From the NCBI GenBank assembly GCA_964247135.1, contig CAXTTL010000013.1, forward strand, positions 1-40,805: a stretch of DNA of 40,805 bases, written 5' to 3'. The translations under genes were made by a program, and so were the position numbers. Each line of letters opens with the position of its first letter. Within the stretch, counting starts at the first letter, position 1. Positions 544 to 17,984 of this stretch are shown here, one piece after another. This DNA is from an uncultured Deinococcales bacterium (GTDB lineage: Bacteria > Deinococcota > Deinococci > Deinococcales > JAAFIG01). The notes under the pieces are model-generated. The model was not told where the DNA came from, ran no database searches, and saw nothing but the letters and a program-made list of their open reading frames with translations.

Positions 544-919
544 TCACAAACCGAGCAACTGCCGTGAAAAATCACGCAACACCTGCGCAGCCCGTAAAAT
601 CGCCTGTGCTTCCTCGAGCGTCGGTTCGGGTTGATTGCCTGGGTAACGGTTTGGGACAACCGCCTGTGCGATCAACTCCGCCGCGCTGCGTTCCAAACTG
701 GGTGTTGTGCTCGGCAGCAACTCGAGCAAAGCCACCAGATCATGCGTGCGTGGGGCTGGGCACACCAGCCTGCAAAATGACCGCTTTGAGGTACTTCTCG
801 CAGGCTTGTGCCAACAACTAACACGCCCCTCGCGGGTGCGCTTCTATACCCTCGAGCGCATACTGAAAGTCATCTTCGGCATATGCCAACCAGTCTCTAG
901 AGTTATGGCTGTCGGGCAT
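544..919 (-). pseudogene. HEPN-domain toxin partner of the MNT, disrupted
   Basis: ATG at 919 overlaps the MNT end and reads MPDSHNSRDWLAYAEDDFQYA..AC*LLAQACEKYLKA. There is an in-frame TAG at 820-818 and a one-base frameshift near 758-765, after which PRTHDLVALL..NRYPG resumes (typical HEPN motifs). The span is 376 nt, i.e. 3n+1. Confidence 0.75.
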
Positions 920-1235: not shown

Positions 1236-1364
1236 GAAATCAGTTTAGCATCCAGGCATAACGCATTCAATTGAGCGACCTGAATGCCCTTTGGTCGGGC
1301 GTTTGTTCTTGCCATAAAATGGAAAATTTACTTCCGTCTTGCCCATGATAAGCTGCGACACCAC

Positions 1365-1940
1365 ATGCTCGAGATTGAAACAACATTTGCAACCACATGC
1401 ACAACCACGCTCGATCTGGAGCAAACAACAGCTTTACTCGAGATGTTTTCCAACATTGGAATCGGTGCTTGGTTGACACAACATCCTTTCGCGGGACTGC
1501 ATTTCAAACCTCGGGTTTTGCTTGGTGAAATCGAAGTCTATGGTCTTTACAGTTACCTCGAGAGAACCGCCGAAATTGCCGTTGCTCGAGAAGAAAACAG
1601 TTTTGGGCAAGCGTTGGTTTGGGGAAAAATTGACAAACTCAGTTACGCCGCACCAAATGCCTTGGATGCCGTGCTTTACACCATGTTGCACGAATTGGGG
1701 CATCATGTACACAATTGTTTAAGAGCCGCTGAACTCTTTCAATTTGCGCTGAGTTTAAGAACCATTCGCAGCGATGGTGTCAGCCATTACGCCAAAAAAT
1801 CAACTGCACCCATCGAGTATTTTGCCGAAAACTTTCTGGCATGGGTGGTCGCTCGAGAAGCACTTTTTCAAAACGACAAATTGGCTTATGCTATGATCAG
1901 TCAGGCTTTAAAAACCTTGCAATTGGAGGTTGGCGCATGA
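1365..1940 (+). CDS. Putative zinc metallopeptidase-like protein (HExxH ... ExFAE); start uncertain (1284 or 1365)
   Basis: LHELGHHVH plus downstream SHYA...EYFAENF. Confidence 0.6.
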   Translation: MLEIETTFATTCTTTLDLEQTTALLEMFSNIGIGAWLTQHPFAGLHFKPRVLLGEIEVYGLYSYLERTAEIAVAREENSFGQALVWGKIDKLSYAAPNALDAVLYTMLHELGHHVHNCLRAAELFQFALSLRTIRSDGVSHYAKKSTAPIEYFAENFLAWVVAREALFQNDKLAYAMISQALKTLQLEVGA

Positions 1941-2163: not shown

Positions 2164-3846
2164 TTAATTCAAAGTGCGTTTAGAATCGTAATGACCCGAC
2201 AACCCCTCAAGCGATTGCGCGGTTTCAATCGCCCAACTCGAGTAGACACCCTTGAAAAACTCGCCCTGAAACACCCCAGCCGCTCGAGCCTCGGTGATGT
2301 CATACTGCCAGATCGCATCCTGGTCGAGCATGTACGCGCCGCGCAAGGCTTGCACCGCGTTCTGCCAGCCCAGCGCGTGCCGCAACTGATCGGAAAACTT
2401 CCAGATCGCTTTCCGCGCCCGATTCTGATCGGCGCTGCTGGTGGCATCTGGAAAAAACGCATCCATGATGCGCTCGAGCGACGCCATACCACCCTGCTCG
2501 AGCAAGAACACCAGCAACTCCGCAGGGCGACCCGTGGGTGCAAGCTCGAGTTTGCGGTCATTGATGAACACCCGCAGCACCCCTTGCGCCAAAACCCGCA
2601 CGATGGTTTTGGGAATGTACTCGAGCGGCACTGGCACGGGCTTCTCGGCAAGGGACAGAAGCTCGAACAATTTGGGGAACATTCGCACCTCCTCGCGCAT
2701 GTGAAGCGTCTGCACGGGCATCCCCTCGAGCAAGTCCACCGCATCGGTCAAACGCCCCTCGCGCCGTGCGAGTTCGGCGCTGGCAACACGGTAGAGCCAT
2801 TGATCCGAGACACTGACCAGCGTCCCCACCCGCTCGAGTGCGATTTTGGCGTGCTTGGTATCGTTCAGCGCCAGAAACGCCATGCTTCGCGCCACGTTGA
2901 CGATGGGCGTTTCGGTGTCGTAAATGTGCAAGGCAAGCTCGAGCGTCTCCAAAGCTTCGGTGGGACGACCTGAAAGCCGCAAGGTGCGAGCCAGCCCAAG
3001 ATGGGATTCTTCACGGTCACTGAGGTCAGACGCAATTTGAAGCGCTTGACGGTACGAAAATTCTGCCCTGTGCCATTCGCCCAGCACCCGCCGCGAAGCC
3101 CCCAAACCGTTCAGAATGGCGGCTTGCATGGATGCCGCTTTTGGGTTTTTGGTTAAGCGCACACCCTCGAGAAAATGATGTTCGGCTTCAGGCTCAAGAT
3201 CACGTAACGTAGAAATACCAAGGTTATAACGGATCAATGCCAAAGTGCTGGGACGTGATCGAAATATTGGCAATGCTTCAAGCCAAACGACTCGAGCTTG
3301 AGCATTTTGATCACTATATGAAAAGCAATGACCTTCATTAATCAAAACTAAGCCAAGTTGGATACCTTTAAGGAATTTCTTCGCTATTTTAAATGCTTGA
3401 ATCCAAGGTTCTCCCAATTCAAACAATGACCATCCAAGACGACCCCATGCTAATCCAAGTGAATTATGATCTGTCAAATGCAGAATAGTAATCTCTAATA
3501 TTTTCTTTGCCTGAGCATAAAATCCCTGTTGTTGTAAGCTAATTGCATATTGAATTTGAATTAAATGGGCATTAGAAACACCACAACGTTCAATGACCTG
3601 ACTTATAAAATCATTCAAGACATTGTGATGAGCGTTAAGTACCAATGTCTTAGCATAAATTTCACGTACCGAAGACAATATAATACGCTTTTCAGTGGGT
3701 ATCCGCTCGAGCATATCAAGTAGTTTTTTTGCCTCATCAGTGGTTGAAATTCGCTCAAAAACGCTTTCTAGCAAACGCGCAATTTGATCAAACTGCTTTT
3801 CACGCAAAAGCGATTCGCAAGAATTCAAGGCATCATCAAATTTCAA
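2164..3846 (-). CDS. TPR-repeat protein with C-terminal SARP/OmpR-like wHTH region (putative regulator)
   Basis: TPR-like helices (YNLGIS, LNGLGASRRVLGEWHRAEFSYRQAL); C-terminal GVLRVFINDR..AELLVFLLEQGG..ERIMDAFF..QLRHALG resembles a SARP N-terminal wHTH; AGGAG RBS before TTG. Confidence 0.75.
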   Translation of the reverse strand: MKFDDALNSCESLLREKQFDQIARLLESVFERISTTDEAKKLLDMLERIPTEKRIILSSVREIYAKTLVLNAHHNVLNDFISQVIERCGVSNAHLIQIQYAISLQQQGFYAQAKKILEITILHLTDHNSLGLAWGRLGWSLFELGEPWIQAFKIAKKFLKGIQLGLVLINEGHCFSYSDQNAQARVVWLEALPIFRSRPSTLALIRYNLGISTLRDLEPEAEHHFLEGVRLTKNPKAASMQAAILNGLGASRRVLGEWHRAEFSYRQALQIASDLSDREESHLGLARTLRLSGRPTEALETLELALHIYDTETPIVNVARSMAFLALNDTKHAKIALERVGTLVSVSDQWLYRVASAELARREGRLTDAVDLLEGMPVQTLHMREEVRMFPKLFELLSLAEKPVPVPLEYIPKTIVRVLAQGVLRVFINDRKLELAPTGRPAELLVFLLEQGGMASLERIMDAFFPDATSSADQNRARKAIWKFSDQLRHALGWQNAVQALRGAYMLDQDAIWQYDITEARAAGVFQGEFFKGVYSSWAIETAQSLEGLSGHYDSKRTLN

Positions 3847-3879
3847 CTCTTAACTCCTACACAACCTAATATGGATTCG

Positions 3880-3915
3880 ATGTGAGTGGCACAGCATCTA
3901 CTGCACCACTCACAT
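3880..3915. other. Intergenic hairpin between the peptide gene and the TPR gene
   Basis: ATGTGAGTGG (3880-3889) pairs with CCACTCACAT (3906-3915); no long U-tract. Confidence 0.55.
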
Positions 3916-3924
3916 TAGTCAACT

Positions 3925-4110
3925 TCAGCAGAGGTTGCTTGCACAAGGTTTAGTATGGTCATCTACCAAAATAATACCTCTCAATCCATTATCTGCCACT
4001 TGTGGATACCTCACCTGTTGCATAGTCACCTGAGCACCCACAAAAGCCGCCACAACCGTCACCAATGCCACCATCACACCTTGCTTTGCCAATTTTACGA
4101 TACGATTCAT
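3925..4110 (-). CDS. Small secreted or membrane-anchored peptide (61 aa) ending in CASNLC
   Basis: AGGAGG RBS; basic N-terminus plus hydrophobic stretch (VMVALVTVVAAFVGA). Confidence 0.7.
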   Translation of the reverse strand: MNRIVKLAKQGVMVALVTVVAAFVGAQVTMQQVRYPQVADNGLRGIILVDDHTKPCASNLC

Positions 4111-4230
4111 AAGTTCCTCCTAGATCGGGGAATGCCGGATGCGGGGGTTTGCCGACCTGATACCGCATCCGATTTCTGATGCCGTCCATCACCAATTCAC
4201 TGCGCTGCCTTCACAGGTGTTCCAGGCGTT

Positions 4231-4419
4231 TCACCCCCTCCCCCTCGAGTTGCGCCAAAACCAAACAGCGCGTTGCAGGTTGTGCCAAAGATTTGCCAGT
4301 CGAACCCTCATCGGGGTGCGTGATGTCTGGAGGCTCGAGAGCAGGTGGTGCTTTTGCGCCTCTTGCCGAAGGGATTGCAGGCGGTCGTTTGCCAAGAATT
4401 CAAACCAGTGCTCGTTCAT
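4231..4419 (-). CDS. Small basic protein (62 aa)
   Basis: GAAAGGAG RBS; own operator and -10 box upstream; similar pattern to 54..239. Confidence 0.7.
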   Translation of the reverse strand: MNEHWFEFLANDRLQSLRQEAQKHHLLSSLQTSRTPMRVRLANLWHNLQRAVWFWRNSRGRG

Positions 4420-4493
4420 GGGGACTCCTTTCTCTTGGGCGCGAAACCCGAGTGTCTGAAAGGGTTTTGCTGGTGCTTGCCCTCTCGAGCGTT

Positions 4494-4548
4494 AGGTTAG
4501 AAAAAGGGCTGTAACCCGAGCGTGATAAAAAAAGGGCTTGGGCGTGAC
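4494..4548 (-). promoter_or_regulatory. Promoter with direct-repeat operator: GTCAC-N17-ATCACGCTCGGGTTAC-N11-TAACCT
   Basis: Pentamer repeats at 22- and 11-nt periodicity next to a -10 hexamer, no good -35; near-identical copy at 4793-4825. Confidence 0.65.
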
Positions 4549-4551
4549 AAG

Positions 4552-4580
4552 AAAAAACCCGAGCCTGAAAAGCTCGAGTC
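4552..4580 (-). terminator. Intrinsic terminator downstream of 4602..4772
   Basis: Minus strand GACTCGAGCT-TTTCA-GGCTCGGGTT followed by a T run. Confidence 0.65.
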
Positions 4581-4601
4581 TTAACTGCAATGGGTTTTGG
4601 T

Positions 4602-4772
4602 TTAACGCAAACCTGGTGGTCTGAACGGCGGCGGCAACCCGCGAAGGTAAGTGTTTAGTGCCTCGAGGTTGTAAAACACGCGCTTAGTGGTGTCTTTTTC
4701 CTCGAGAATAAGCGTCCAAGGGTGGGTGGCGGTGGCGGGTTGAATGCGAATGTGAAACTCGAGTTGCTGCAT
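4602..4772 (-). CDS. Small protein, 56 aa, below the ORF-track cutoff: MQQLEFHIRIQPATATHPWTLILEEKDTTKRVFYNLEALNTYLRGLPPPFRPPGLR
   Basis: AGGAGG RBS at 4786-4781, ATG at 4772, TAA at 4604-4602; three in-frame CTCGAG (LE) sites as in host genes; own promoter and terminator. Confidence 0.75.
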   Translation of the reverse strand: MQQLEFHIRIQPATATHPWTLILEEKDTTKRVFYNLEALNTYLRGLPPPFRPPGLR

Positions 4773-4792
4773 GGTGCTGACCTCCTGAGTGG

Positions 4793-4825
4793 AGGGTAGC
4801 GGATGGGGCGTAACCTGAGCGTGAT
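4793..4825 (-). promoter_or_regulatory. Promoter/operator ATCACGCTCAGGTTAC-N11-TACCCT
   Basis: 15/16 identical to 4511-4526 with the same spacing to a -10 hexamer. Confidence 0.65.
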
Positions 4826-4955
4826 ATTGGCTCGTGTGCTGCTAAACTAATGATAAAAGTAAAGACGCATTCGTGAGCAAAATTACATTGACCTGAAAAT
4901 CTCTGCCTCAACTCAAAAGCAAAATGCAGGGTAATAAAAATTAGCAAGCATTCAA

Positions 4956-5447
4956 CTATTGCAAGCGATGAGCAAAAAATCTGTGAAGAATTTCAAACTC
5001 AGATTGTCGAGTCCTTCCAGAAATTCCCTCATTGTTAAAAATCATAATTAAGTTATATTTTTTATTTATGTCTTCTTCGAGGAATGTTAGATGTCCGCTA
5101 AATTCCTCTGACAAAAACTCTCTTATTAAGTCTTTGTCTACGTGCGAAACATCTATTTGAATTTTATTTAAATTTTCAAGTTGAATTTTACCCTTAATTG
5201 TTATGCTAGGTGTAATTTCATTATCTAAATCTAGGATTAAACTAAAAGTATCATTTACAAGTAAGTTAAAAATTTCTAATGAAATTGAATCAAAAGTTAA
5301 TTTAACTAATTTAGTTTTTGGTGGTCTAATTCCACCATTTAATGGGAGAATACTAATTGAATCAATTTTAAATTGAATCTTATTCTCTGTTTCATATATT
5401 ACATGTATTTCCAGTAGAATTATATCTATATTTTCAGTATTCATCAT
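4956..5447 (-). CDS. AT-rich hypothetical protein (163 aa)
   Basis: Long open frame in very AT-rich DNA; AGGAGG RBS at 5461-5456. Confidence 0.7.
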   Translation of the reverse strand: MMNTENIDIILLEIHVIYETENKIQFKIDSISILPLNGGIRPPKTKLVKLTFDSISLEIFNLLVNDTFSLILDLDNEITPSITIKGKIQLENLNKIQIDVSHVDKDLIREFLSEEFSGHLTFLEEDINKKYNLIMIFNNEGISGRTRQSEFEILHRFFAHRLQ

Positions 5448-5539
5448 ATGTATAGCCTCCTATTTTTAAACTATTACTATTTATATTAATAGTAAGTTAC
5501 ATATCTATAAGCGTTTATAATTTATTAAATTAGTAATAT

Positions 5540-8500
5540 TTAATTCAAAAATTCATCAAAGCCAAATTTACTTAAAAATATTAGGCGCTCTTTTTTTTCT
5601 AAAGAATTTGCTAATTTTTTAGCAGTAGTATAAATTTCTTCCTGAATTTTGTTTAATAAGTCAAATTTATTCAGTATAATTAAATTATTTAATATTGCAT
5701 ATCTTAATTTTAAAGCTTCAATAGCAGGTATTTGTTTTTCTGAAAGAATTTTCAACCCATCTTTAATATTAATTAATCTATTTTCCGAATTTAAAAGATT
5801 CAAACGCAGTTTGATAGAGAGTAGCATTGGATATAAAGGATAGTTTCTTTGAAATTTTTCAAAAATCTGATTTAACTGACTAAAATTTTCACTTTGCATA
5901 TAAATTTCTGCAAGTAGCCATAAAACTGTTGATTTTTCTTCAAGATCAAGCTTTTTAAAGTTAAAAAGATTAATTAATCTTTTTTCAGCTTTTTTAAATT
6001 TAAAGTTTTCAACTTCATAATGCGCAAAAAGTATTTCAAACCAAGATTTAAATGCATCTAATTTAGCTTGAGTTTGTATTTTTTTTACCTCTTTTAGAAT
6101 TTTAAATGCACTTAAAACATCACCAAATTCAAGATACATTTTAGTATAATTTAAACGTTCATGTATTTGTAGGCGTACAAGAGAGTGCGTATCTGCAATT
6201 TTAATAGATTCAATTGAACTTTTGAGAGCACCACCAAAGTTTCCATTTGCACGTTGAATTAAGCTACGAAGGGAAAGAAAAGTAGATTCATCTCGTGGGT
6301 CTTTTGGGGCACTTGATAATTGGAGTCCTTCATCAACAAGTGGAAGAGCAGATTCAAAATCATTTTCATAAAGAAAAGAGTTTGCCAAGTTAGATAATAC
6401 TAATCTTTGCCAAGGAACATATCCGATAAAACGTGAACTTGCAAGAGCCTGTTTCAAATAAGAGCGTGCAACTATATGGTTGTCTGCAAAAATTTCTATA
6501 ACACTTCCAATATTTAGTGCTAATATTTCGCCTGAATAATTTTTAATTGCTCGGAATGCTGTTAGTGCTATCTCAAAGTGCTGACGACCTGAAGTAACGT
6601 CTCGTTTTTCAAAATCACAATTTGCCAACGTATTATTTAACCGTCCAATCAATTCAAATGCTGTCTTTGGTGCTCTCTCAAGCCCCATCTTTAACAGTTT
6701 TTCCGCTTCTGCAATCCGTCCTAACCTCACCATTGCATTTCCAGCCTCGAGATGCGCTCGAGCCATCCACTCATTAGGTACGTCTTGTTGCTCGAGTATT
6801 TCTGTGGCGTGCTCGAGGGCTTTGTGGTACTGCCCAGAGTAAAAGTAAAATTCCGCCAGCCCAAGTCCAGATTCAATCTCGAGGTTGCGCTCACCAAGGT
6901 ACGTGGCGATTTCGATGGCGGCATGAACATCTTCGCTCCACCCAATGCGTTCGTCCAAAGCTTTCCACAGCGCGGCTCGAGCGGTGTGAATGCGAAATTG
7001 CTCGTGTTCGCTCACGCCAAGCTCGAGGGCGCGGGCGTAATGTACCAGCGCGTCGCGGTAGGCGTACACGGCTCGGGCGGCTTCGGCGGCTTTGATGCGC
7101 CACGGGGCAGCTTGGGTCTTCAGGTCGGCTTGCTCGAGGTGGTCGGCAATGCGGGCGGGTTGTCCGTGGTTGGCTTCCAGGGTGGCGGCGAGGCGTTTGT
7201 GCAGCAGCTTGCGGCGGTCTGCGCCAAGGGCGTTGCTGAGGCTGCGGCGGATCAGGTCGTGGTGGAAGCGGTGTCCTTGCGGGTTGGGGCGTAAAATGCC
7301 GGCGCTGCTGGCTCGCTCGAGGGCTTCCAAACCCAGCCATTCGTCCAGGGCGGTGGCTTGGGTCAATTCGGAAAGTTGAAAGTCGTCTCCGGTCAGGCTG
7401 GCGGCGTCGAGCATTCGGCGCACGGCGGGTCTAAGGCGGTCGATGCGTTGCAGCACGGCTTGACGCACACTTTGCGCCAGGGGAAGTTCGGCGTAATCTT
7501 CGGTCTGGGCATCATAAGGGGTGCTCCAGACACCGCTCGGGTCTTTGAACAGCGTTCCAGCCTCGAGCAGGTCGCGCAGTGTCTCGAGGACGAACAGGGG
7601 GTTTCCGGCGGTGGCATCGAACAATCGTTTGGCAAAAATCGTGCCGCTGGTGCTGCCACTGAGGGCTTGTATCAGGCTGAGAATCATGGTCTCATTCAGT
7701 GGCTCGAGGCTGATGCGGGTCAGCAGTCCATCGCGCTCGAGGTGCTGTATGGCTCGGGTCGCGGCGGGGTTTTCGCTCAGTTCGCTTGGTCTGGCGGTGG
7801 CAATCAATTTGATGCCTGCGGCTTTGGCGCGTTTGGAGAGTTGCACCATCAGTTCGCTGCTGGTCGCGTCAAACCAGTGAAAGTCATCGAGCAGCAGTGT
7901 GCCGCTTTGTTGCACGGCGGCAATCAGGGCGTGGGTCAAGCCTTCCAAAAATCGGGCGCGACCTTCTGGCAGGGCTTCTGTGGCGGCGCTGGGTGCATCT
8001 GGCTCGAGTTCTGGCACGAGTCTGGCGGCTTCGTGTCGCCAGATGGTTTCCAACTCGAGGTTCTGGCTGGCAAGATGCGCTCGCAGGGCGCTCGCCACGG
8101 GGAACAAGGGCGTGCCGCTCGAGAGTTCCTGACCGCTTAAAACCAAAGTGTTGCCGCTGGCGTGGACAAATTCTGTCGCCAGTCGGGTTTTGCCGACACC
8201 TGGTTCGCCCTCAATCAAAATCAGGCTGGCTTCGCTGGTCTCGAGTTGCGTCCAAAATTGATCGCGTCCGATCATGGGCGGGGTTTGAAATGGATTTTCG
8301 CTTGGCGCGGCTTTGGCGGGTTTGAGGCTCAGGTTTCGTCCTGAGCGAATCCGTTCGGCTAAACGCAAGGTTTCGGGCAGAGGCTCGAGTCCAAGTTCTT
8401 GCTGCAAAATCTGGCGGCAGCGCTCAAACCGCGCCAACGCCTCTTTGCGCTCACCCAGCATCGAATGCAGGCGCATGGCTTCACGGTGATGGTGCTCTTG

Positions 8501-9031
8501 AAGTTCATCCTCCTCGAGCAGCGTCAAATGAGCTGCCAGTGCGCCGCGTGGGTTGCCTGCCGCCTCGAGCGCCACGGCTTGACGTTTCAGGGCGTTGCGG
8601 CGTTGGCTGGACAGCGTTTCGCGCCAGGCGTCCACCCATTCCTGGAACGCAGGAGCACCGCGCCATTGGGTCCCCTCGAGAAATACGCCCTTGCAATGCT
8701 CGAGGGCTGCCTCGAAGTGTTCGGCTTTGATGGCGTTTTGAAAACGTGTCACGTCCGTCTCGAGCGGAGCTTTAAGGTTGAGCGCATCACCTTCAACCAG
8801 CAAGTGATCCTCGAGTGTGGTGGCTCGGATGCGGCGCAATTCTTGGCGCAAGTTGGTGCGGGCGGCGGAATCGTCGAGTTCGCCCCACAGCAAATCCGCC
8901 AGCTTTGCACGGCTGGTTGCTCCCTCGAGCGCCAAGTAACCTACCAAGCCAAGCGCCTTGCGCGTCGAAAGTGCAACTTCGAGCGCATTGACCCGTATTG
9001 TGGGTTTGCCGAACAATGAAACCTCGAGCAT
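5540..9031 (-). CDS. AfsR/SARP-like regulator: wHTH-BTAD + STAND-type ATPase + TPR
   Basis: Starts MLEVSLFGKP after an AGGAG RBS; RAKLADLLWG..ARTNLRQEL (SARP); BTAD helices (EHHHREAMRL); Walker A GEPGVGKT; LLLDDFHWFD; FHHDLIR; C-terminal TPRs. Confidence 0.9.
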   Translation of the reverse strand: MLEVSLFGKPTIRVNALEVALSTRKALGLVGYLALEGATSRAKLADLLWGELDDSAARTNLRQELRRIRATTLEDHLLVEGDALNLKAPLETDVTRFQNAIKAEHFEAALEHCKGVFLEGTQWRGAPAFQEWVDAWRETLSSQRRNALKRQAVALEAAGNPRGALAAHLTLLEEDELQEHHHREAMRLHSMLGERKEALARFERCRQILQQELGLEPLPETLRLAERIRSGRNLSLKPAKAAPSENPFQTPPMIGRDQFWTQLETSEASLILIEGEPGVGKTRLATEFVHASGNTLVLSGQELSSGTPLFPVASALRAHLASQNLELETIWRHEAARLVPELEPDAPSAATEALPEGRARFLEGLTHALIAAVQQSGTLLLDDFHWFDATSSELMVQLSKRAKAAGIKLIATARPSELSENPAATRAIQHLERDGLLTRISLEPLNETMILSLIQALSGSTSGTIFAKRLFDATAGNPLFVLETLRDLLEAGTLFKDPSGVWSTPYDAQTEDYAELPLAQSVRQAVLQRIDRLRPAVRRMLDAASLTGDDFQLSELTQATALDEWLGLEALERASSAGILRPNPQGHRFHHDLIRRSLSNALGADRRKLLHKRLAATLEANHGQPARIADHLEQADLKTQAAPWRIKAAEAARAVYAYRDALVHYARALELGVSEHEQFRIHTARAALWKALDERIGWSEDVHAAIEIATYLGERNLEIESGLGLAEFYFYSGQYHKALEHATEILEQQDVPNEWMARAHLEAGNAMVRLGRIAEAEKLLKMGLERAPKTAFELIGRLNNTLANCDFEKRDVTSGRQHFEIALTAFRAIKNYSGEILALNIGSVIEIFADNHIVARSYLKQALASSRFIGYVPWQRLVLSNLANSFLYENDFESALPLVDEGLQLSSAPKDPRDESTFLSLRSLIQRANGNFGGALKSSIESIKIADTHSLVRLQIHERLNYTKMYLEFGDVLSAFKILKEVKKIQTQAKLDAFKSWFEILFAHYEVENFKFKKAEKRLINLFNFKKLDLEEKSTVLWLLAEIYMQSENFSQLNQIFEKFQRNYPLYPMLLSIKLRLNLLNSENRLINIKDGLKILSEKQIPAIEALKLRYAILNNLIILNKFDLLNKIQEEIYTTAKKLANSLEKKERLIFLSKFGFDEFLN

Positions 9032-9198
9032 CGTTTCATCTCCTGTGGCGTAATTCTTGCATGGTAGCAAAGAATGAGCTTTCAGATGCAAAGTTGCGTC
9101 TGAGACAACATCAGGACTTGATTTTCTCGAGCCGCTCAGTCTGGTTATTGGGGTTCGGCTTCACCATTTGTTCACCCTCCAACCCTTAAACTTTACGC

Positions 9199-10997: not shown

Positions 10998-11846
10998 ATG
11001 TCACCCAAATTGATGCTGGCAACCACAATGGGATTGGTCGTGTTTCTCGTTTGGGTGAACGCCCCAAGCGTCGCGCTGAACAAAACCGTGGCGCTGGGCG
11101 ACCTCGAAAGAAGTCTGAAAGCCGCCAAAGACGGCGATACCCTGTTTTTAGCCGAAGGCGATTACAAACTTGCACACTTGGTCAACGTGCAAAAATCCAT
11201 TTCTTTGGTTGGGACGGGCGCAACAAAAACCCGTGTGATCTCGAGTTTGAATCAAGAAGTCATGCGTTTTGTGAACGTGAGTTTGAATCTAAAAGGCATT
11301 GGCTTCGTTCACTCGGGAAAGCAAAAAGCCGATGTGCTCAACATTGTCGATTCAAAAATAAAAATTGAGGATTGCAGTTTTTCTGGGGCGTTCAGTCCAG
11401 ATTCGCCAGCCAAAGTCGGTGATGGCATCTGGCTTCATGGGCGCTCGAGTGGCACAATCAGCAACAGCTTTTTCGAGAACAACAGCTTGCGCGGACTCGA
11501 GATCACCGACAATTCCAGTCTCGAGCTTGACCATGTTCAACTCAACCACAACAGGTCTGGTTTAAGCCTGTACAAGAATGGCAAAGTTCATGTGGTGGGC
11601 AGTGTTGTCCAGTTCAACACCTACAGCGGAATCAGTTTTGCCAACACTTCGACCGGCGAAGTCTCGAGCAACACGATTGACAGCGACAATTACGGCATCG
11701 AAATTCTGGACTCGAGCAGTGTGAGCGTTTCAAACAACAAAATTTCGTCGCAAAAAGAAGCGATTTATGTGGGGAAAAAAGCCCACGCCAAAATTGGTGA
11801 AAACACCTTCGAGTCAAATGGCAGCGATGTTGTGTACGAGAAGTAA
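10998..11846 (+). CDS. Right-handed beta-helix protein, tandem paralog of 9735..10904 lacking PEGA
   Basis: Shared LKGIGFVHxGKQKxDVL, GDGxWLHGxSSG, EAIYxGKKAHxKIG and terminal YEK. Confidence 0.85.
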   Translation: MSPKLMLATTMGLVVFLVWVNAPSVALNKTVALGDLERSLKAAKDGDTLFLAEGDYKLAHLVNVQKSISLVGTGATKTRVISSLNQEVMRFVNVSLNLKGIGFVHSGKQKADVLNIVDSKIKIEDCSFSGAFSPDSPAKVGDGIWLHGRSSGTISNSFFENNSLRGLEITDNSSLELDHVQLNHNRSGLSLYKNGKVHVVGSVVQFNTYSGISFANTSTGEVSSNTIDSDNYGIEILDSSSVSVSNNKISSQKEAIYVGKKAHAKIGENTFESNGSDVVYEK

Positions 11847-11929
11847 AAATTGAATCTCGAGCTTTGAAAACGCCCTGTACGTGTGACCAAATCTCGAGTT
11901 TGCAGATTTTGGTTTGGTATGGTGCTGGC

Positions 11930-12064
11930 GTGTGGCGAAGATTGATTCCAATGCTGGTGATGACGTTTGTTATTTTTTACGTTTGGCGAGAAGCAGAACT
12001 TAAAGTTTTCAAACCAAACAAATCTCGACTCGACCATACTTTTGATCAGCTTGAAATGTCATAA
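11930..12064 (+). pseudogene. Truncated 5' remnant of a third paralog of 9735..10904
   Basis: TATGGT-6nt-GTG start; MWRRLIPMLVMTFVIFYVWREAE aligns with MWHRLISALAIVIILLFVWQEVK; stops after 44 aa beside the AT-rich island. Confidence 0.5.
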
Positions 12065-12175
12065 TTGGTCAGAATACGTTTCAGAAAAACGGAAAAGACT
12101 TTACGAGCAAGAGGTAAAAATCAAAGCCCGAGTTTCGAGTTTCGAGAATAAACTGAGTTTAATAAAGGAGTTAAA

Positions 12176-13357
12176 ATGCCAGAAAATAATATTACTTTAA
12201 ACTTAATAAAAGATACGAAATTACAATGTTATTCCATTATCACAACCACAGATACAAAAAGTTATCTTAATATTGTTGAGAAAGCATATAAAGACAAGGG
12301 AGGAATAAGAGGTCAAAGAGACCCTTTAAAAACAAGTAGCGCAATCAGAATTAGAAAAAGAATGATAGATGACCTAAAAAATGGTGCGGTTATACCACCA
12401 ATTGTAATCGGAATAGTGATTGATGAAGATAAGTTTCAAGATATAGAAAAAATGAATGAGGCAGATTTTTCTAATTTTATTTTACAATTAGAAAAAAATC
12501 AAATTTCAATTATAGATGGAATGCAGAGAACAACAGCACTTACAGAAATTGAGGACCTAAAAAGCTATAAATTAAGAGTTGAATATTGGATTTCAACAAA
12601 TATAAACAGCTTAATTTATAGAATGCTTGTTTTAAACACTGGTCAAGTTCCTTGGAACATTAGAAGGCAAGTAGAGGTTGTTTTTGATTCACTAATAGAA
12701 GAATTAAAAACAAAAATTACAAGTACAGGTTTTCAAATACATAAAACTGATGATAAAAAGCGACGGGTAAGATCAGGTGTATTCCAAGCAGATCAAATTA
12801 TTGAATTATACCTAGTATTTGGCGCAAGAAAAGAAAACATTAATAGGCAGGAAAAATTAGCTGATGAATTTGCGCGTCTTGATTTTATAGAAGCTACGTC
12901 AAATTATCAATTTACAGATATTTTTAGTGACGTTTTGAATATTTTGATTCAATTTGATCTTGTTTTTGAAAAATTTGAAGGAAATAACATTGATGGGCGC
13001 TTTCAAATTGGAAAAGACTTATTTAGCAGTGAGCCAGCACAAGCTGGTTTAATAGCTTCTTTCGCAATAAAGATCATGGGAAGACCAGGAAGCCCAGAAA
13101 AATCTATAGAAATGCAGCAAGAAAAATTAACAGAAATTAAAGCGTCGGCAGGCATACTTCTTCAACGGCTCGGCGCTATGAATTCGCAACAAATGGGTGA
13201 ATTTTTGGACTTTGAAACATTAAACTCGGTAATAGGTGGAAAAACTTCAGGTGCTGTTGGTGATTTTGAAAGGTCTGTTTTTTTAAAAGCATTTGAAACA
13301 CTGATAAACGAAGAGTTTAGAGTTGATTCAATGACTGTTTGTTGGAGATCACATTAA
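12176..13357 (+). CDS. DUF262/DGQHR (ParB-superfamily)-like protein
   Basis: IPPIVIG..IIDGMQRTTAL..LNTGQVP motifs; AAGGAG RBS; AT-rich. Confidence 0.7.
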   Translation: MPENNITLNLIKDTKLQCYSIITTTDTKSYLNIVEKAYKDKGGIRGQRDPLKTSSAIRIRKRMIDDLKNGAVIPPIVIGIVIDEDKFQDIEKMNEADFSNFILQLEKNQISIIDGMQRTTALTEIEDLKSYKLRVEYWISTNINSLIYRMLVLNTGQVPWNIRRQVEVVFDSLIEELKTKITSTGFQIHKTDDKKRRVRSGVFQADQIIELYLVFGARKENINRQEKLADEFARLDFIEATSNYQFTDIFSDVLNILIQFDLVFEKFEGNNIDGRFQIGKDLFSSEPAQAGLIASFAIKIMGRPGSPEKSIEMQQEKLTEIKASAGILLQRLGAMNSQQMGEFLDFETLNSVIGGKTSGAVGDFERSVFLKAFETLINEEFRVDSMTVCWRSH

Positions 13358-13359
13358 AA

Positions 13360-14421
13360 ATGTCAAGAAATATGATAAATACTCATATAAAAGTCTTTGA
13401 TATGCTTAAAGACTTTGTTTTATCAAATGAAGCTAACTTAGAAATTAACCCTTCGGCAGTAAGATATATTTCATGCAACGATAGTGAAGAAAAAATACTA
13501 AAAAATTTAATAATTGATTCTAGAATACCAGTATACTCAGGATTATTAATAGCATTTTGCACACATAATGATACAGAAAACAATGTAGAAGAAAAATACT
13601 TTGTGATTACTGGCAAAAGAAATTTTTCACTACAAGAAGAATTTCTTCAAGAAATAGACTTAAACGCTGGATTTGCAACATGTCTAATAGGCGACTTGGA
13701 AATACCTATTAAAGATGATTACAGTCACTTGAACATCGTAAATGAAATCCTTTTTCTTTACAAAGGTAGTAGCTCAGAATTATATACTGGACATAACTTT
13801 TCAGATATTATTAAACCTTTTGAGCATATTTTAGTCTTCAAAATTTTACCTAACTGTCCAATTAAATTTGAGGATTCTTTCAAATTTTCGTGTTTTGCTT
13901 GTATAAAAAACAAAAAGAAAATATTACTTCTTCCATTTTCTGATAAATTAACAACTTTATTGGAAGATTTAATATTTGAAAACGAAACTAAATTTCCATT
14001 TGAAAATACTTTTTACGCACTAAACTCAACCAAATGGGAATATGTATTTCTGGAGTTTTATCGATGCGTGGAAAAATTTTTTCCTATTGTTTTAACTTCT
14101 AGACTATACGCAGATTTAGGACTAGGAATAGATGTTTTTGAATTTTCCAACAAAATTGAGGGACTCTTAAACTGGAAAGCCAAAGAAGATCAAGCAATTA
14201 AATCAATTTTTAATGATTTACCAAAGGAAATGACTAGAATTCTAACAGGTATCACTAATGAAAATTTAGGTAAGTGGTACTATGGTTTAAGGAATAAAAT
14301 AGTCCATCACCGAAAAAATGAATCGAAAATTAGTATTACAGACAAAGATTGGAATCAAATTATGGAATTTTCTATAAATTTAATAGATTTTTTTTATAAA
14401 AAATATTCCAAATTCATCTAA
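13360..14421 (+). CDS. Protein with C-terminal HEPN-like RNase motif
   Basis: FLEFYRCVE helix and YGLRNKIVHH (R-x4-H) near the C-terminus; ATG follows the upstream stop after a 2-nt gap. Confidence 0.65.
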   Translation: MSRNMINTHIKVFDMLKDFVLSNEANLEINPSAVRYISCNDSEEKILKNLIIDSRIPVYSGLLIAFCTHNDTENNVEEKYFVITGKRNFSLQEEFLQEIDLNAGFATCLIGDLEIPIKDDYSHLNIVNEILFLYKGSSSELYTGHNFSDIIKPFEHILVFKILPNCPIKFEDSFKFSCFACIKNKKKILLLPFSDKLTTLLEDLIFENETKFPFENTFYALNSTKWEYVFLEFYRCVEKFFPIVLTSRLYADLGLGIDVFEFSNKIEGLLNWKAKEDQAIKSIFNDLPKEMTRILTGITNENLGKWYYGLRNKIVHHRKNESKISITDKDWNQIMEFSINLIDFFYKKYSKFI

Positions 14422-14484
14422 ATTCGAATCTATAACTTCTATAATTATTTAGTACAAAAAATTCCCATGAGAATTAGGTTCAAT

Positions 14485-16725
14485 CTATTCTTGATGCTTC
14501 TCAACTTCAATCCCAGCGAACAACACCCGCACTATCCTCGAGAATGCCATGTCATCCGCGTGCCTGTAAGCTTGCAAGAATCGCTCGAGTTGGTAGTGTT
14601 TGGCTTCTTCGGCAACCAGTTTGGGACTCGAGCGGTAGGATTCGATTGGTTTAAACTCGAGTGGACGAAGTTCATTGAGTAACTCGAGCACCTGAGGTGA
14701 GAATGGCTCGCCGCGTTTGCGGGCTTGTTCGGCGATCTTTAGTTTCTCGAGCGTCCACGATTCGCGGGTTTCAAGGTCAACCAGAGTGCGTTCGGTGAAG
14801 GCAAATTGCAGTTGCACACCCGCTAAAATCCAAGCCTCGAGCAAGTCCAAACTGGGCATTGAAATCAAAGTCAAACTTGAAACGAAATCTGATGAATTGT
14901 GCAATGGAATCGTTGGGTAATTTTTGCTCACAAACTCGAGCGCCGCACCATCGGCGAACACAGCACTCGGCTCGAGTTTGAGTTTCTCGAGCGTGGTTTT
15001 GGTATCAGTACGCGGGTAATTCAGACCGCCGTCCAAATCTTCCTCGAGAAGTTTGAGGCTGGATTGATAACGCATTTTGACGGTTGAAAACTCGAGACTG
15101 CTTCTCCCCTGCCAGAGGTTTTCTTCGACTTGCACGGCGGCATCGACGCGATCACCACCCGCGAATGGCACGCCAACGCCCCATTGCTTGCCTTTTAATC
15201 CACCGGCGCGGTACTGAAAATGCTTGCCATCCTTGCCCAAGCTGCCCGCCGCCTCGAGCGTTTCGCGCAGCCAGAACACGGGGGCAGGGTTGCCCTGCCC
15301 GAACGGTTCGAGCGATTCGAGGTGCTTGATGAGGGTGCTCGAGATGTCGCGCGGCGCGATCATGGCGTCGCAGGTCACGGTTTCGAGTGGTTCTGGGTGA
15401 CGGGCGGCAAACTCGAGGATGCTGGCACGAAAATCGGGGATGCTGGCATCGTGAAGCGCAAAACCGCCAGCCGCCGTATGACCGCCGAAGCGTTTCAGGT
15501 GGCTCGAGGCGTGGGTCAACGCTTTCACGGCGCTGATGCCAGGGGTCGAGCGCACACTGCCTTTGCCCGCCGCGATGATGAATACGGGTTTGTAAAAACG
15601 CTCGAGCAATTTGGACGCCACAATGCCCATCACGCCAGGATGCCAATTGTCTTTGGTCACAACCAGCGCGGGCGCTTCGGGGTCAACAATCAACAATGCT
15701 TCACGGTACATTTCGTCTTGAACTTTTTTACGCTCGAGATTTCGGGCATCAAGGTAGGTGGCGAGTTCCAGGGCGCGACGTGGACTGTCCGTGGTCAGCA
15801 GCTCGAGGGCAACATTGGCTTCACCGAGCCGCCCAGCCGCGTTGACCCGAGGCGCAATCATAAAACCGACATCTTTGGCAGACACCGTTTTTAAATTCTT
15901 CGCGTCCACCATCGCCCGAATGCCCACCCACCTCGAGTTTGCCATGCGTGCCAGACCAAATTTGACCAGCGCCCGGTTTTCGCCCAAAAGCGGTGCAAGG
16001 TCTGCCACCGTACCGATGGTGGCAAGGTCGGCATAATCCCAGGGTGGCTCGAGTCCTAGGGTTTGGCGCACCGCCCAGAGCAAGTGAAACGCCACGCCAG
16101 AACCCGTGAGCGCTGGCAAATCGGGATGAAAGTTTGGCGCAAGCGCAGGATGCACGACCAGACAACCTGGCAGGTCATGCCCAGGTGCGTGATGATCGGT
16201 GACAATCGCCTCTGCGCCACCCGCCACAATCAAGGCAATTTCGGCAAGGTTGCTGACGCCGCAATCGACGGTGATGAACAAATCACAACTCTCGAGGTGC
16301 TCGGGCACACGGTCGGGATGCACGCCGTAACCATCGGTCAAACGGTGCGGAATAAACGTGTGAACATTCGCGCCCAACTCGCGCAAACCCAGCATCAACA
16401 GACTTGCGCCTGTGATGCCGTCGGCATCGTAATCGCCGTGAATCCGAATGCGTTTTTTGGCATTGATCGCCGCAATGATTCGCACCGCCGCCTCGAGCAG
16501 CGCAGGGTTGGGACTTAAAGCCAGCTCTGGCTCGAGCGCGTCGGCGCTGTGAATGCCCCTGGCGTACAAAATCGCGGCGATTTTGGGCGGCAAACCCAGG
16601 GTTCTCGAGAACACCTCGAGCTTGGCGATGGGTGCGGGCGCACGAAGTCGCCATTGCACGGGACGGACACGTTCGATGGGGACAGTCTCGAGGGTTGGGA
16701 CAGGTTTGCTCGAGATGATGGTCAT
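14485..16725 (-). CDS. recJ: Single-stranded-DNA exonuclease RecJ
   Basis: HGDYDADG, ITVDCG, TDHH, GTVAD, PRVNAAGRL, GSVRS, FGGH, LEPFGQGNP; C-terminal extension. Confidence 0.96.
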   Translation of the reverse strand: MTIISSKPVPTLETVPIERVRPVQWRLRAPAPIAKLEVFSRTLGLPPKIAAILYARGIHSADALEPELALSPNPALLEAAVRIIAAINAKKRIRIHGDYDADGITGASLLMLGLRELGANVHTFIPHRLTDGYGVHPDRVPEHLESCDLFITVDCGVSNLAEIALIVAGGAEAIVTDHHAPGHDLPGCLVVHPALAPNFHPDLPALTGSGVAFHLLWAVRQTLGLEPPWDYADLATIGTVADLAPLLGENRALVKFGLARMANSRWVGIRAMVDAKNLKTVSAKDVGFMIAPRVNAAGRLGEANVALELLTTDSPRRALELATYLDARNLERKKVQDEMYREALLIVDPEAPALVVTKDNWHPGVMGIVASKLLERFYKPVFIIAAGKGSVRSTPGISAVKALTHASSHLKRFGGHTAAGGFALHDASIPDFRASILEFAARHPEPLETVTCDAMIAPRDISSTLIKHLESLEPFGQGNPAPVFWLRETLEAAGSLGKDGKHFQYRAGGLKGKQWGVGVPFAGGDRVDAAVQVEENLWQGRSSLEFSTVKMRYQSSLKLLEEDLDGGLNYPRTDTKTTLEKLKLEPSAVFADGAALEFVSKNYPTIPLHNSSDFVSSLTLISMPSLDLLEAWILAGVQLQFAFTERTLVDLETRESWTLEKLKIAEQARKRGEPFSPQVLELLNELRPLEFKPIESYRSSPKLVAEEAKHYQLERFLQAYRHADDMAFSRIVRVLFAGIEVEKHQE

Positions 16726-16853
16726 TTGGTAAGGCTAACCCAAATGATGCGTGGGTTGGAAGGGGGTTCGTACAATCACTTGTTCTGACATCTCGAGATA
16801 CAATCACTGGAATCGCAAATCTCAATTCTTAAATATTTTTCACAGGAGCTTTC

Positions 16854-17984
16854 ATGACGCAACGCAACACGCTGGTTTTTGGCGCAGGCAAAGTTGGTTC
16901 GACCATCGCGCATTTGCTGCATCACAGCGGTAATTTCTCGGTCACATTGGCAGACAAGGACAGCGCTGCACTGAAGCGGGCAAGCAAGCAATTGGGTGTA
17001 CACACCAAACTTCTGGACGCCTCAGACCCCAGCGCTTTGGCTCGAGGTTTAGAAGGTTTTGACGCGGTGGTCTCGGCAGGACCATTTTTCGTGAATGCCC
17101 CCATCGCACAGGCGGCGCTCGAGACGGGCATCAGTTATTTTGACCTGACCGAAGACCGTGAAACCACCAGCCTGGTTCGTGCTTTGGCAGAACGAGCCAA
17201 TGAGGGTCAGATTTTTATGCCCCAGTGCGGGCTTGCCCCAGGGTTCATCGGCATTCTGGCGGCACATTTGACCCAGGGTTTCGATTCGGTTCATGACATC
17301 AAAATGCGGGTCGGTGCGCTGCCCAAATACCCGTCAAACATGCTGATGTACAACCTCACCTGGAGCACGGACGGCATCATCAACGAGTACATCAACCCCG
17401 CCGAAGCCATCGTGGGTGGCAAGCTCACCGAGCTGCAGTCACTCGAGGGACTCGAGGAGTTCTCGCTGGACGGCATGACCTATGAGGCGTTCAACACCTC
17501 GGGCGGTCTGGGGACGCTGTGCGAAACGCTCGAGGGAAAAGTGCAAAACCTCGATTACAAATCGGTGCGTTACCCTGGGCATCAGTATTTGATGCGCTTT
17601 TTGTTGCACGATTTGCGCTTGTCCGAACAGCGCGAACTGGTGAAAGACATTCTCGAGCGTGCCTTGCCGATCACGCCGCAAGATGTGGTTTTGACCTTTT
17701 GCACCGTGTCTGGCGAACGCAATGGACGGTTCACGCAAGTTTCCGATGCGAGAAAGATTTACGACACGACGGTGCATGGTCAGCACTGGAGCGCCATTCA
17801 ACTGACCACCGCCGCGAGCGTCTGCGCCGTGATGGACTTGCACGCCGGCGGGATGCTGCCCTCAAAGGGTTTTGTGCGTCAAGAGCAAGTGCCGTTTGAA
17901 GCCTTTCTCGAGAATCGTTTTGGACGGCATTATGCGACTTCGGGAGGTCTGCTCGAGGATCAGAGGATCAATGCTTTGGTTTGA
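16854..17984 (+). CDS. Saccharopine dehydrogenase family (lysine 6-dehydrogenase-like)
   Basis: GAGKVG Rossmann motif, YFDLTED, CGLAPG, VGALP, TWSTDGIINEY, YKSVRYPGH. Confidence 0.88.
   Translation: MTQRNTLVFGAGKVGSTIAHLLHHSGNFSVTLADKDSAALKRASKQLGVHTKLLDASDPSALARGLEGFDAVVSAGPFFVNAPIAQAALETGISYFDLTEDRETTSLVRALAERANEGQIFMPQCGLAPGFIGILAAHLTQGFDSVHDIKMRVGALPKYPSNMLMYNLTWSTDGIINEYINPAEAIVGGKLTELQSLEGLEEFSLDGMTYEAFNTSGGLGTLCETLEGKVQNLDYKSVRYPGHQYLMRFLLHDLRLSEQRELVKDILERALPITPQDVVLTFCTVSGERNGRFTQVSDARKIYDTTVHGQHWSAIQLTTAASVCAVMDLHAGGMLPSKGFVRQEQVPFEAFLENRFGRHYATSGGLLEDQRINALV

Follow-up and report, generated by a model that had tools for sequence, protein, structure and literature searches.

A small signal-type peptide and an adjacent helical-repeat regulator form a conserved Deinococcota module that may sense peptides

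Introduction

RRNPP-type signalling through cytoplasmic peptide receptors is regarded as a trait of the Bacillota and their phages. The name covers systems such as Rap/Phr, NprR/NprX, PlcR/PapR, PrgX, Rgg/SHP and AimR/AimP; a general description of RRNPP is given in PMC10075063. Here we ask whether two adjacent genes of an uncultured Deinococcales bacterium, one for a 61-residue peptide with a signal-type N-terminus and one for a 560-residue tetratricopeptide repeat (TPR) protein, could work in a comparable way. Both lie on a contig of 40,805 nucleotides (CAXTTL010000013.1; C13 in our numbering), which was analysed over its whole length and is called the window below. It belongs to a Deinococcales metagenome-assembled genome (GCA_964247135.1; G000) of 5.1 Mb and 84% completeness. 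A first-pass annotation, made from the letters alone, had proposed that a secreted peptide able to form a Cys ring communicates with a TPR receptor of inverted architecture, meaning one with its winged helix-turn-helix (wHTH) domain at the C-terminus.

Results

Conservation of the peptide-receptor pair

The two genes consist of the following parts (coordinates are those of the window).

4116-4121, minus strand: ribosome-binding site (RBS) AGGAGG of the peptide gene, read from the sequence, 5 nt before the ATG
3925-4110, minus strand: gene for the 61-aa pre-peptide, recognised as an open reading frame (ORF) with RBS and by homologous ORFs upstream of receptor homologues
4033-4110, minus strand: residues 1-26 of the peptide, Sec-type signal or signal-anchor as predicted by our own heuristic only
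3928-3975, minus strand: conserved C-terminal tail IILVDDHTKPCASNLC, candidate mature signal, from the family consensus
2164-3846, minus strand: receptor/regulator gene, 560 aa, TTG start, co-oriented with the peptide gene and starting 78 nt downstream of its stop codon
2650-3840, minus strand: TPR-type helical solenoid of the receptor, residues 3-399, presumed peptide-binding sensor, from an AlphaFold2 model, Pfam and VIA-align
2197-2604, minus strand: wHTH of the SARP (Streptomyces antibiotic regulatory protein)/OmpR type plus final helix, residues 415-550, from a domain model, Foldseek and a sequence profile

Both genes were found as the first-pass annotation had described them, the small ORF with its strong RBS and its tail, and the TPR ORF (Pfam TPR_12) co-oriented about 80 nt downstream. 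A receptor profile search of 201 Deinococcales genomes gave matches in 185. By hand count, about 70 genomes from three of the five families sampled held a full-length match at E <= 1e-40, and 96 receptor ORFs with their flanks, 94 of them distinct, made up the homologue set. By automatic classing, 80 of the 94 distinct homologues are preceded by a co-oriented ORF that has a hydrophobic helix and whose tail can be recognised; the tails at these paired loci were Gly-rich (61), CC (10) or Cys-x-Cys (9). Among the 14 unclassed loci, two have less than 200 nt of upstream sequence (L013, L042), five show a visible candidate that the rule missed (L065, L068, L075, L081, L093), two have the peptide ORF farther upstream (L027, L050) and one has a weak candidate (L008); no upstream peptide ORF was seen at four of the 94 homologues (L002, L024, L087, L098). 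Homologues lacking an adjacent signal-type peptide had been named beforehand as the observation that would speak against the proposal, and this is not what the survey returned. The source genome itself holds four paralogs of the TPR protein, and immediately upstream of three of them there is a small co-oriented ORF of the same build.

The 61-aa peptide begins with a basic N-terminus (MNRIVKLAKQG), continues with an uncharged hydrophobic stretch and finishes with a 35-aa tail ending in IILVDDHTKPCASNLC; as judged from the sequence, cleavage after VGA is possible. Export features of the family were scored with our own heuristic, which takes the charge of the n-region and the length of the uncharged stretch. 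The 85 unique peptides (median 49 aa, range 35-85) have a net-positive n-region in 80 cases and an uncharged stretch of at least 15 residues in 82. Their conserved portion is the tail. Aligned on its Lys, the family form is hydrophobic-hydrophobic-A-(G/D)-D-(D/G)-P-K-x-G-(T/G)-G-G, and the stop codon comes next. The window clade carries V-D-D-x-(x)-K-P-C-x2-4-C in place of this Gly-type consensus, and a third class ends in P-K-C-C-x-G-G. The C-x4-C spacing on which the predicted Cys ring was based is present in the window copy and specific to it; since its clade spans C-x2-C to C-x4-C and most family peptides lack Cys altogether, it is one variant among several and the ring does not hold as a family feature. 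Paralogs inside the source genome also differ in their tails (PCASNLC, TGAGGG, PAGGGG/PTGG).

The peptide ORFs are under purifying selection, with a pooled pN/pS of 0.31 (8 independent equal-length pairs). Several of them are found, identical, in Meiothermus and Deinococcus records, where public annotation has called them independently as 'hypothetical protein'. The 61-aa peptide had no match in Pfam, NCBIfam or PADLOC, and the top score of an ESM Atlas search with it (0.79) was under the lead level. At two loci, two tandem peptide genes precede a single receptor: in L003 (446-920) with the tails ..ADDGSTKPTGG and ..ADDGAKPAGGGG, and in L015 with ..DDNPKPCSVC and ..ADDPKPCPACRR.

A hidden Markov model (HMM) of the last 14 residues of the tails was searched against the 11,918 six-frame ORFs of the loci. 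At E < 1 it matched 82 distinct ORFs, nearly all at the extreme C-terminus, of which 77 were upstream of and co-oriented with a receptor; since the model was trained on the same tails, the informative part of this result is that only five matches fell elsewhere. Tail class also tracked the receptor phylogeny (built with FastTree), with 17 changes along the tree against a mean of 31.1 for shuffled classes (0 of 200 shuffles reached 17). In the co-variation check that the first-pass annotation had suggested, peptide-tail distance correlated with distance over receptor residues 1-140 once the other segments were removed (partial r 0.19, 0/300 permutations), a signal for which linkage could equally account, and did not correlate with the wHTH (r -0.01). 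Peptide and receptor are one conserved Deinococcota module, and we are highly confident that it is real and functional.

Fold of the receptor

Pfam assigned TPR_12 (E 3e-11) and also TPR_2 to the receptor, and no signal or membrane segment was seen in its 560 residues. An AlphaFold2 model built on a 50-sequence alignment (mean predicted local distance difference test (pLDDT) 93.7, predicted template modelling score (pTM) 0.88) has 24 helices across residues 3-399. These are followed at residues 415-523 by three short strands, three helices and a beta-hairpin, and then by one long last helix. Foldseek with the whole model returned only generic TPR proteins, and the C-terminal domain was therefore folded alone (pLDDT 94). 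Its top hit was the SARP domain of AfsR (8hvr_I, E 5.9e-6, TMq 0.65, 164 columns), with EmbR (9e-3), the DNA-binding domain of PhoB (2e-2) and many OmpR/PhoB domains next. A sequence profile of the C-terminus searched against the PDB matched the CarR DNA-binding domain (E 0.0024), AfsR (0.084) and also EmbR. Pfam stayed below threshold, with Trans_reg_C at E 0.02-0.05 in two paralogs only, and gave no BTAD match in the receptor. The C-terminal wHTH that had been read from the letters is nonetheless clear from structure prediction and fold search.

The solenoid aligned in VIA-align at Z 17-21 to peptide-binding TPR proteins (LGN, Rap with bound pheromone, NprR, AimR, OGT and designed TPRs). The alignments to Rap, NprR and AimR, at Z 17-20, are level with those to LGN, OGT and the designed TPRs; likewise, a profile search of the PDB placed RapJ (E 1.5e-3) and RapH (6.8e-3) amid generic TPR matches. 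The modelled solenoid is thus compatible with an RRNPP-like sensor and does not amount to proof of one. A complex prediction with TPR residues 1-410 and the predicted 35-residue mature peptide (score 0.02, mark 0.32) speaks neither for nor against binding. No relative was found among viral contigs.

A variable stretch spanning peptide and sensor

The first-pass annotation had noted that the peptide gene and the N-terminal part of the receptor are AT-richer than the wHTH end, and had read this as ligand and sensor moving together. The composition was as described: within one ORF, GC is 0.34-0.38 over 3300-3900 and 0.60-0.62 over 2250-3000, and it stays low through the peptide gene. Comparison with the ortholog at L007 delimits the stretch concerned.

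3457-4091, minus strand: variable cassette running from roughly codon 7 of the peptide gene through the spacer to around residue 130 of the receptor

Over this stretch, with a GC of 0.40, the window has no DNA alignment to L007, while the flanks are 91% (4092-4826) and 76% (2222-3456) identical. At the protein level, identity between the two receptors over eight successive segments is 27, 35, 56, 94, 91, 78, 53 and 60%, that is 27-35% over residues 1-140 and 91-94% over 211-350. L007 and L013 show a mosaic of this kind as well, their identity being 33-43% N-terminally and 99% across the wHTH. Metagenome contigs point in the same direction. We used only contigs that continue unlike the window, and not the coverage gap at 3220-4011 (runs X2 and X3). 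Such contigs, from two runs, diverge from the window at 4025, 4101 and 3195 (contigs matching 4025-4178 included), extend for 73 to at least 255 letters unlike it, and continue differently between the runs.

The gradient from a low-GC N-terminus to a high-GC C-terminus is common to the window copy, L007, L013, L042, L016, L015 and L045 and absent from the cas-linked members described below. The hexamer CTCGAG occurs once in the cassette against 4.5 expected sites (P 0.06), which is only suggestive. Together, mosaic identity, DNA alignment and the contigs diverging at the edges support the idea of one cassette and, at the level of sequence, the view that peptide and receptor N-terminus are exchanged as a pherotype-like allelic unit.

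Association with cas operons

Most relatives of the module stand in front of cas genes. The first same-strand ORF downstream of the receptor, scanned at 85 loci, was a WYL/WCX regulator in 53, some of them fused to or followed by Cas3-HD; five further downstream ORFs encode Cas6, Cas10/Cmr2 (three) or Cse1, so that WYL/cas genes total 58 of 85. The loci headed by the module are of types I-C, I-E and III-B. One of them lies in the same genome as the window: on contig C9 (L101, 652-11320) a complete type I-C operon runs on one strand from paralogous peptide and TPR-wHTH genes through WYL, Cas3, Cas5d, Csd1/Cas8c and Cas7 to Cas1. In genome G029 (L102), a 12-repeat CRISPR array at 16736-17575 lies just upstream of the peptide gene; at 11313-14549 on the minus strand of this locus, the receptor is followed by a 1078-aa ORF that is seemingly a WYL/WCX regulator fused to Cas3.

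This linkage had been noticed before for the receptor. In PADLOC, the window protein matches two models end to end, PDLC01171 'TPR repeats containing protein' (E 2.7e-110, 3-502 of 504) and PDLC01092 'C3a198 TPR protein' (E 1.6e-84). The available part of Shah et al. 2018 (PMC6546367) lists C3a198 as a 'TPR protein' with representative Mrub_1490, three members and type III-B association, and gives it no function there. The TPR family is thus already catalogued as CRISPR-linked, and we found no prior report of its peptide partner or its wHTH. The window clade is not cas-linked: no cas gene is present within the 40.8-kb window, and the genes downstream of the module vary by locus.

Regulatory DNA of the module

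Two non-coding elements belong to the module.

4093-4170, minus strand: non-coding block that is conserved and holds the inverted repeat CGGATGCGG-N18-CCGCATCCG, candidate promoter, operator or 5'-untranslated region element
3880-3915, minus strand: strong stem-loop between peptide stop and receptor start, attenuator or terminator-like, here without a U-run

Both hairpins that the first-pass annotation had reported as flanking the peptide gene are present. The upstream one (4136-4144/4163-4171) has 9-nt arms that are 100% complementary and 18 nt apart, and its folding energy is unremarkable (z = -1.5). The one in the spacer (3880-3894/3901-3915) has 15-nt arms of 87% complementarity and, as RNA, reaches -25.9 kcal/mol (z = -6.2; 0/200 shuffles as good). 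The spacer stem-loop is a family trait, with z below -2 in 38 of the 70 distinct spacers (median 80 nt), below -3 in 23, and U-runs in several. Hairpins before peptide genes are not general in thermodynamic terms (median z -0.75, 13% below -2), and long-loop inverted repeats upstream of peptide genes occur in subgroups only.

The 79-nt block at 4093-4170 is 91% identical to that of L007 and 80-84% identical to those of L014, L015 and L016, and it is the only non-coding DNA that can be aligned across the window clade. Relatives in other clades keep an inverted repeat of the same layout at the same place with different stem sequences. A search of Rfam with 3800-5000 gave no match at E up to 1. 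At L023-L071, the start of the peptide gene is preceded, at a distance of 30-110 nt, by short palindromes specific to clades (GCGACA-N5-6-TGTCGC, CTGCAC-N5-GTGCAG and CGCGCA-N7-TGCGCG), which could be operators of the TPR-wHTH protein, of the WYL regulator or of a CRP-type regulator.

Neighbourhood of the module in the window

In the window, the module stands by itself within a variable defence island, whose other genes include a homolog of Dazbog DzbA, an AfsR-like BTAD-AAA-TPR gene and a nucleotidyltransferase toxin-antitoxin-like gene. Two further small ORFs upstream of the peptide gene are conserved.

4231-4419, minus strand: conserved 62-aa ORF (MNEHWFEFLAN...), upstream of the peptide gene also in L007/L012, L014 and L016
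4602-4772, minus strand: conserved 56-aa ORF with relatives in L007, L015 and L016, followed by a terminator-like site at 4582-4554

Neither has a Pfam, NCBIfam or PADLOC match; the 62-aa ORF is possibly part of the unit in the window clade.

The 40.8 kb of the window contain 291 copies of CTCGAG, or roughly one in every 140 bp, where shuffled sequence gives an expectation of 7.25; AT-rich islands are marked by its absence. One such island, at 12176-14421 (plus strand; GC 0.27-0.34), encodes the DzbA homolog (E 5.7e-49) and then a 360-aa ORF without family match. It looks like a recently acquired defence island because CTCGAG is absent there against 18.8 expected sites. The AfsR-like regulator at 5540-9091 (minus strand; 1183 aa with BTAD, AAA_16 and TPR) falls in GC from 0.68 to 0.20 toward its C-terminal TPR end, and 4827-6700 contains no CTCGAG against 13.4 expected; the gene looks like a second regulator of the island whose sensor end has been replaced. 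It is followed at 4956-5447 (minus strand) by a co-oriented 163-aa ORF with a GC of about 0.24 and no family match. BLASTP found no similarity between the C-terminus of our receptor and the N-terminus of this AfsR-like protein (E 1.6).

On the other side of the module, a protein with a nucleotidyltransferase domain is encoded at 903-1235 on the minus strand (NTP_transf_2, E 2.7e-10). The small ORF beside it (544-765, minus strand) looks HEPN-like, and the two may be a toxin-antitoxin pair. Between them and the receptor, and convergent with the latter, lies a 218-aa ORF (1284-1940, plus strand) with a HELGHH motif, zinc-metalloprotease-like by eye, for which Pfam and PADLOC gave no match.

Discussion

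We propose that the module is an RRNPP-like peptide-sensing regulator, a reading to which we assign a probability of roughly 0.55 and of which every step is inferred, namely export, trimming, uptake, binding and the transcriptional switch. The pre-peptide would be exported and trimmed to a C-terminal fragment, which would build up outside the cell and then be re-imported; the 26 matches to SBP_bac_5 (Opp/Dpp-type binding proteins) in the genome are permissive for uptake only. Inside the cell, the fragment would bind the TPR groove of the receptor and thereby switch the activity of the wHTH at the module promoter and at downstream genes. With a stem-loop after the peptide gene, the peptide transcript would be short and abundant, and read-through into the receptor gene would be limited. 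In most relatives the regulated genes would be those of the following cas operon, while the window copy would probably act on its own promoter block (4093-4170), if on nothing else. In these terms, the inverted-architecture communication system that the first-pass annotation had envisaged is partly supported, by the pairing, the C-terminal wHTH and the joint variation, and not by the Cys ring, which is not family-wide.

A broader picture would be that Deinococcus-Thermus has a peptide quorum sensing of its own, built from a TPR sensor with a SARP-type wHTH and placed as the first two genes of I-C, I-E and III-B cas operons, where a secreted peptide would switch immunity, while stand-alone copies would swap peptide-sensor cassettes into pherotypes. 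We offer this tentatively, with the odds somewhat against it.

Several points weigh against peptide sensing. Export, processing, uptake and binding of the peptide are predictions from sequence, and within 1.5 kb of the modules we saw no recurrent gene for an exporter, protease or importer dedicated to the peptide. The Gly-class tails vary mainly at two positions, which is unusually little for a specificity code, and the tail might serve in processing, sorting or modification instead. The likeness of the receptor to RRNPP receptors is no better than its likeness to generic TPR proteins. Its co-variation with the peptide may be due to physical linkage alone, because peptide and receptor N-terminus are adjacent on the DNA, and a search for convergent receptor columns separating CC from Gly tails gave five columns, none of them common to all three CC clades. 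SARP/OmpR-type domains mostly bind direct repeats, and the conserved upstream element is an inverted repeat. The block at 4093-4170 may not be the operator of this regulator, because it is 91% shared with L007, yet the wHTH domains are only 53-60% identical.

Four other explanations were considered. The peptide could remain in the membrane by a signal-anchor and serve the TPR regulator there as its sensor or anti-activator; envelope or phage stress might, for instance, alter the stability of the peptide, and no diffusible signal would be involved. A basic N-terminus with a single hydrophobic helix suits a signal-anchor equally well, and the setting in defence loci would suit an infection sensor; the control of CRISPR-Cas by a sigma factor of the extracytoplasmic function (ECF) type and its anti-sigma factor in Myxococcus (PMC6061681) provides a model. 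However, the cytoplasmic N-terminal part would be only about 4-12 residues long and is variable, and by the positive-inside rule the conserved tail would lie outside the cell, away from a cytoplasmic receptor that has no membrane segment. Many copies, moreover, have Ala-x-Ala-like sites after the helix, as judged heuristically, and we consider this explanation unlikely. Distinctly unlikely, in our judgement, is that the TPR-wHTH protein senses something else and merely controls the expression of the peptide as an exported effector (bacteriocin-like, adhesive, metal-binding, for kin recognition, or the precursor of a ribosomally synthesised and post-translationally modified peptide, RiPP). Tails with a Cys-pair, CC or many Gly residues do resemble small modified or metal-binding peptides, the tight D-D-P-K conservation could mark a processing or modification site, and NCBIfam gave a weak match to the RiPP-linked TPR protein HaaT (E 1.3e-4, far below the cut-off and a lead only). 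Against this, no modifying enzyme, transporter or immunity gene recurs beside the pair, peptide and sensor N-terminus are swapped together, and there is no obvious reason why cas operons belonging to three subtypes should be headed by an effector peptide.

Clamping of free C-termini is common among TPR domains, as in PEX5 and Hop. On this basis, the tail might be bound before export, or the peptide might never be exported, and the pair would be a timer or feedback device, or a chaperone-like TPR protein with its client, without communication between cells. The conserved motif does sit at the extreme C-terminus in nearly all copies and PEX5 chains were among the profile matches, but 80-82 of 85 peptides retain a signal-type N-terminus, for which a reason is hard to see if there is no export, and we regard a purely intracellular role as improbable. 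Finally, the peptide gene is short and belongs to no database family, as would be expected if it were a chance reading frame next to ordinary terminator hairpins. This can be practically dismissed: the idea is refuted by the conserved position, architecture and tail motif in three Deinococcales families, and the pN/pS value and strong RBS also stand against it.

If the broader picture sketched above is right, an RRNPP-like system with a cytoplasmic peptide receptor would here be described for the first time outside the Bacillota, and cas loci would for the first time be seen to contain a signalling module of their own. Peptide communication would be sought in a wider range of bacteria if Deinococcota have a counterpart of it, whether convergent or very distant. 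Through its position at the head of cas operons, the module ties cell-cell signalling to CRISPR immunity in a concrete way that can be tested, in hosts that are harmless and can be cultivated (Meiothermus, Deinococcus), and a function would be offered for a catalogued but unexplained CRISPR-linked 'TPR protein' and for dozens of 'hypothetical' ORFs of 35-85 aa. The cassette structure would, in addition, represent a natural set of orthogonal peptide-regulator pairs.

Comparison with known systems

In the literature we came across no paper that describes the peptide partner or the wHTH, nor one on peptide signalling in Deinococcota or cas loci, although the supplements of PMC6546367 and 10.1101/270033 may hold more. 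Control of CRISPR-Cas by acyl-homoserine lactone (AHL) quorum sensing is described, in the parts of these papers available, for Serratia (PMC5179492) and Pseudomonas aeruginosa (PMC9563714, PMC6393702). Cell density tuning CRISPR immunity would be the shared principle; there, as far as those parts go, global LuxIR-type regulators encoded elsewhere in the genome are responsible, whereas here a dedicated peptide-type module would head the cas operon itself.

The module resembles RRNPP systems in joining a small pro-peptide gene, with a predicted secretion signal and a presumed C-terminal active part, to an adjacent gene for a TPR-type receptor of the cytoplasm, in most RRNPP systems a transcription factor, and in having several paralogous pairs with differing peptides per genome. 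Its solenoid model can be aligned to the structures of Rap, NprR and AimR with Z 17-20, as it can to those of generic TPR proteins. It differs in that the DNA-binding domain is a C-terminal SARP/OmpR wHTH and not an N-terminal XRE-type HTH (absent in Rap), in its Deinococcota host and in the absence of detectable specific sequence homology. The tail motif DDPK-x-G-x-GG is, moreover, family-wide, most members are in cas loci, and no viral copy was found.

AfsR also joins a SARP domain with TPR repeats. AfsR is the best match of the C-terminal 150 residues of our receptor, followed by EmbR, and an AfsR-like BTAD-AAA-TPR gene adjoins the module at 5540-9091. The order is inverted, however, as SARP proteins have an N-terminal wHTH and a full BTAD, whereas the receptor starts with its TPR part and has the wHTH last (residues 415-523 of 560), with no ATPase domain and only a stub of the BTAD helical domain after the wHTH. 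With C3a198, the family shares the fit of the window protein to both PADLOC models and the 58 of 85 relatives that adjoin WYL/cas genes; the entry, in the part available, lists neither a DNA-binding domain nor a peptide partner, and the window copy is not beside cas genes.

The agr and com pherotype cassettes of staphylococci and streptococci combine a hypervariable signal gene and the sensing part of its receptor between conserved flanks. The hypervariable stretch of peptide and sensor described here is arranged in the same way between conserved flanks, but the receptors in agr and com are membrane histidine kinases, whereas here the receptor is a cytoplasmic TPR transcription factor.

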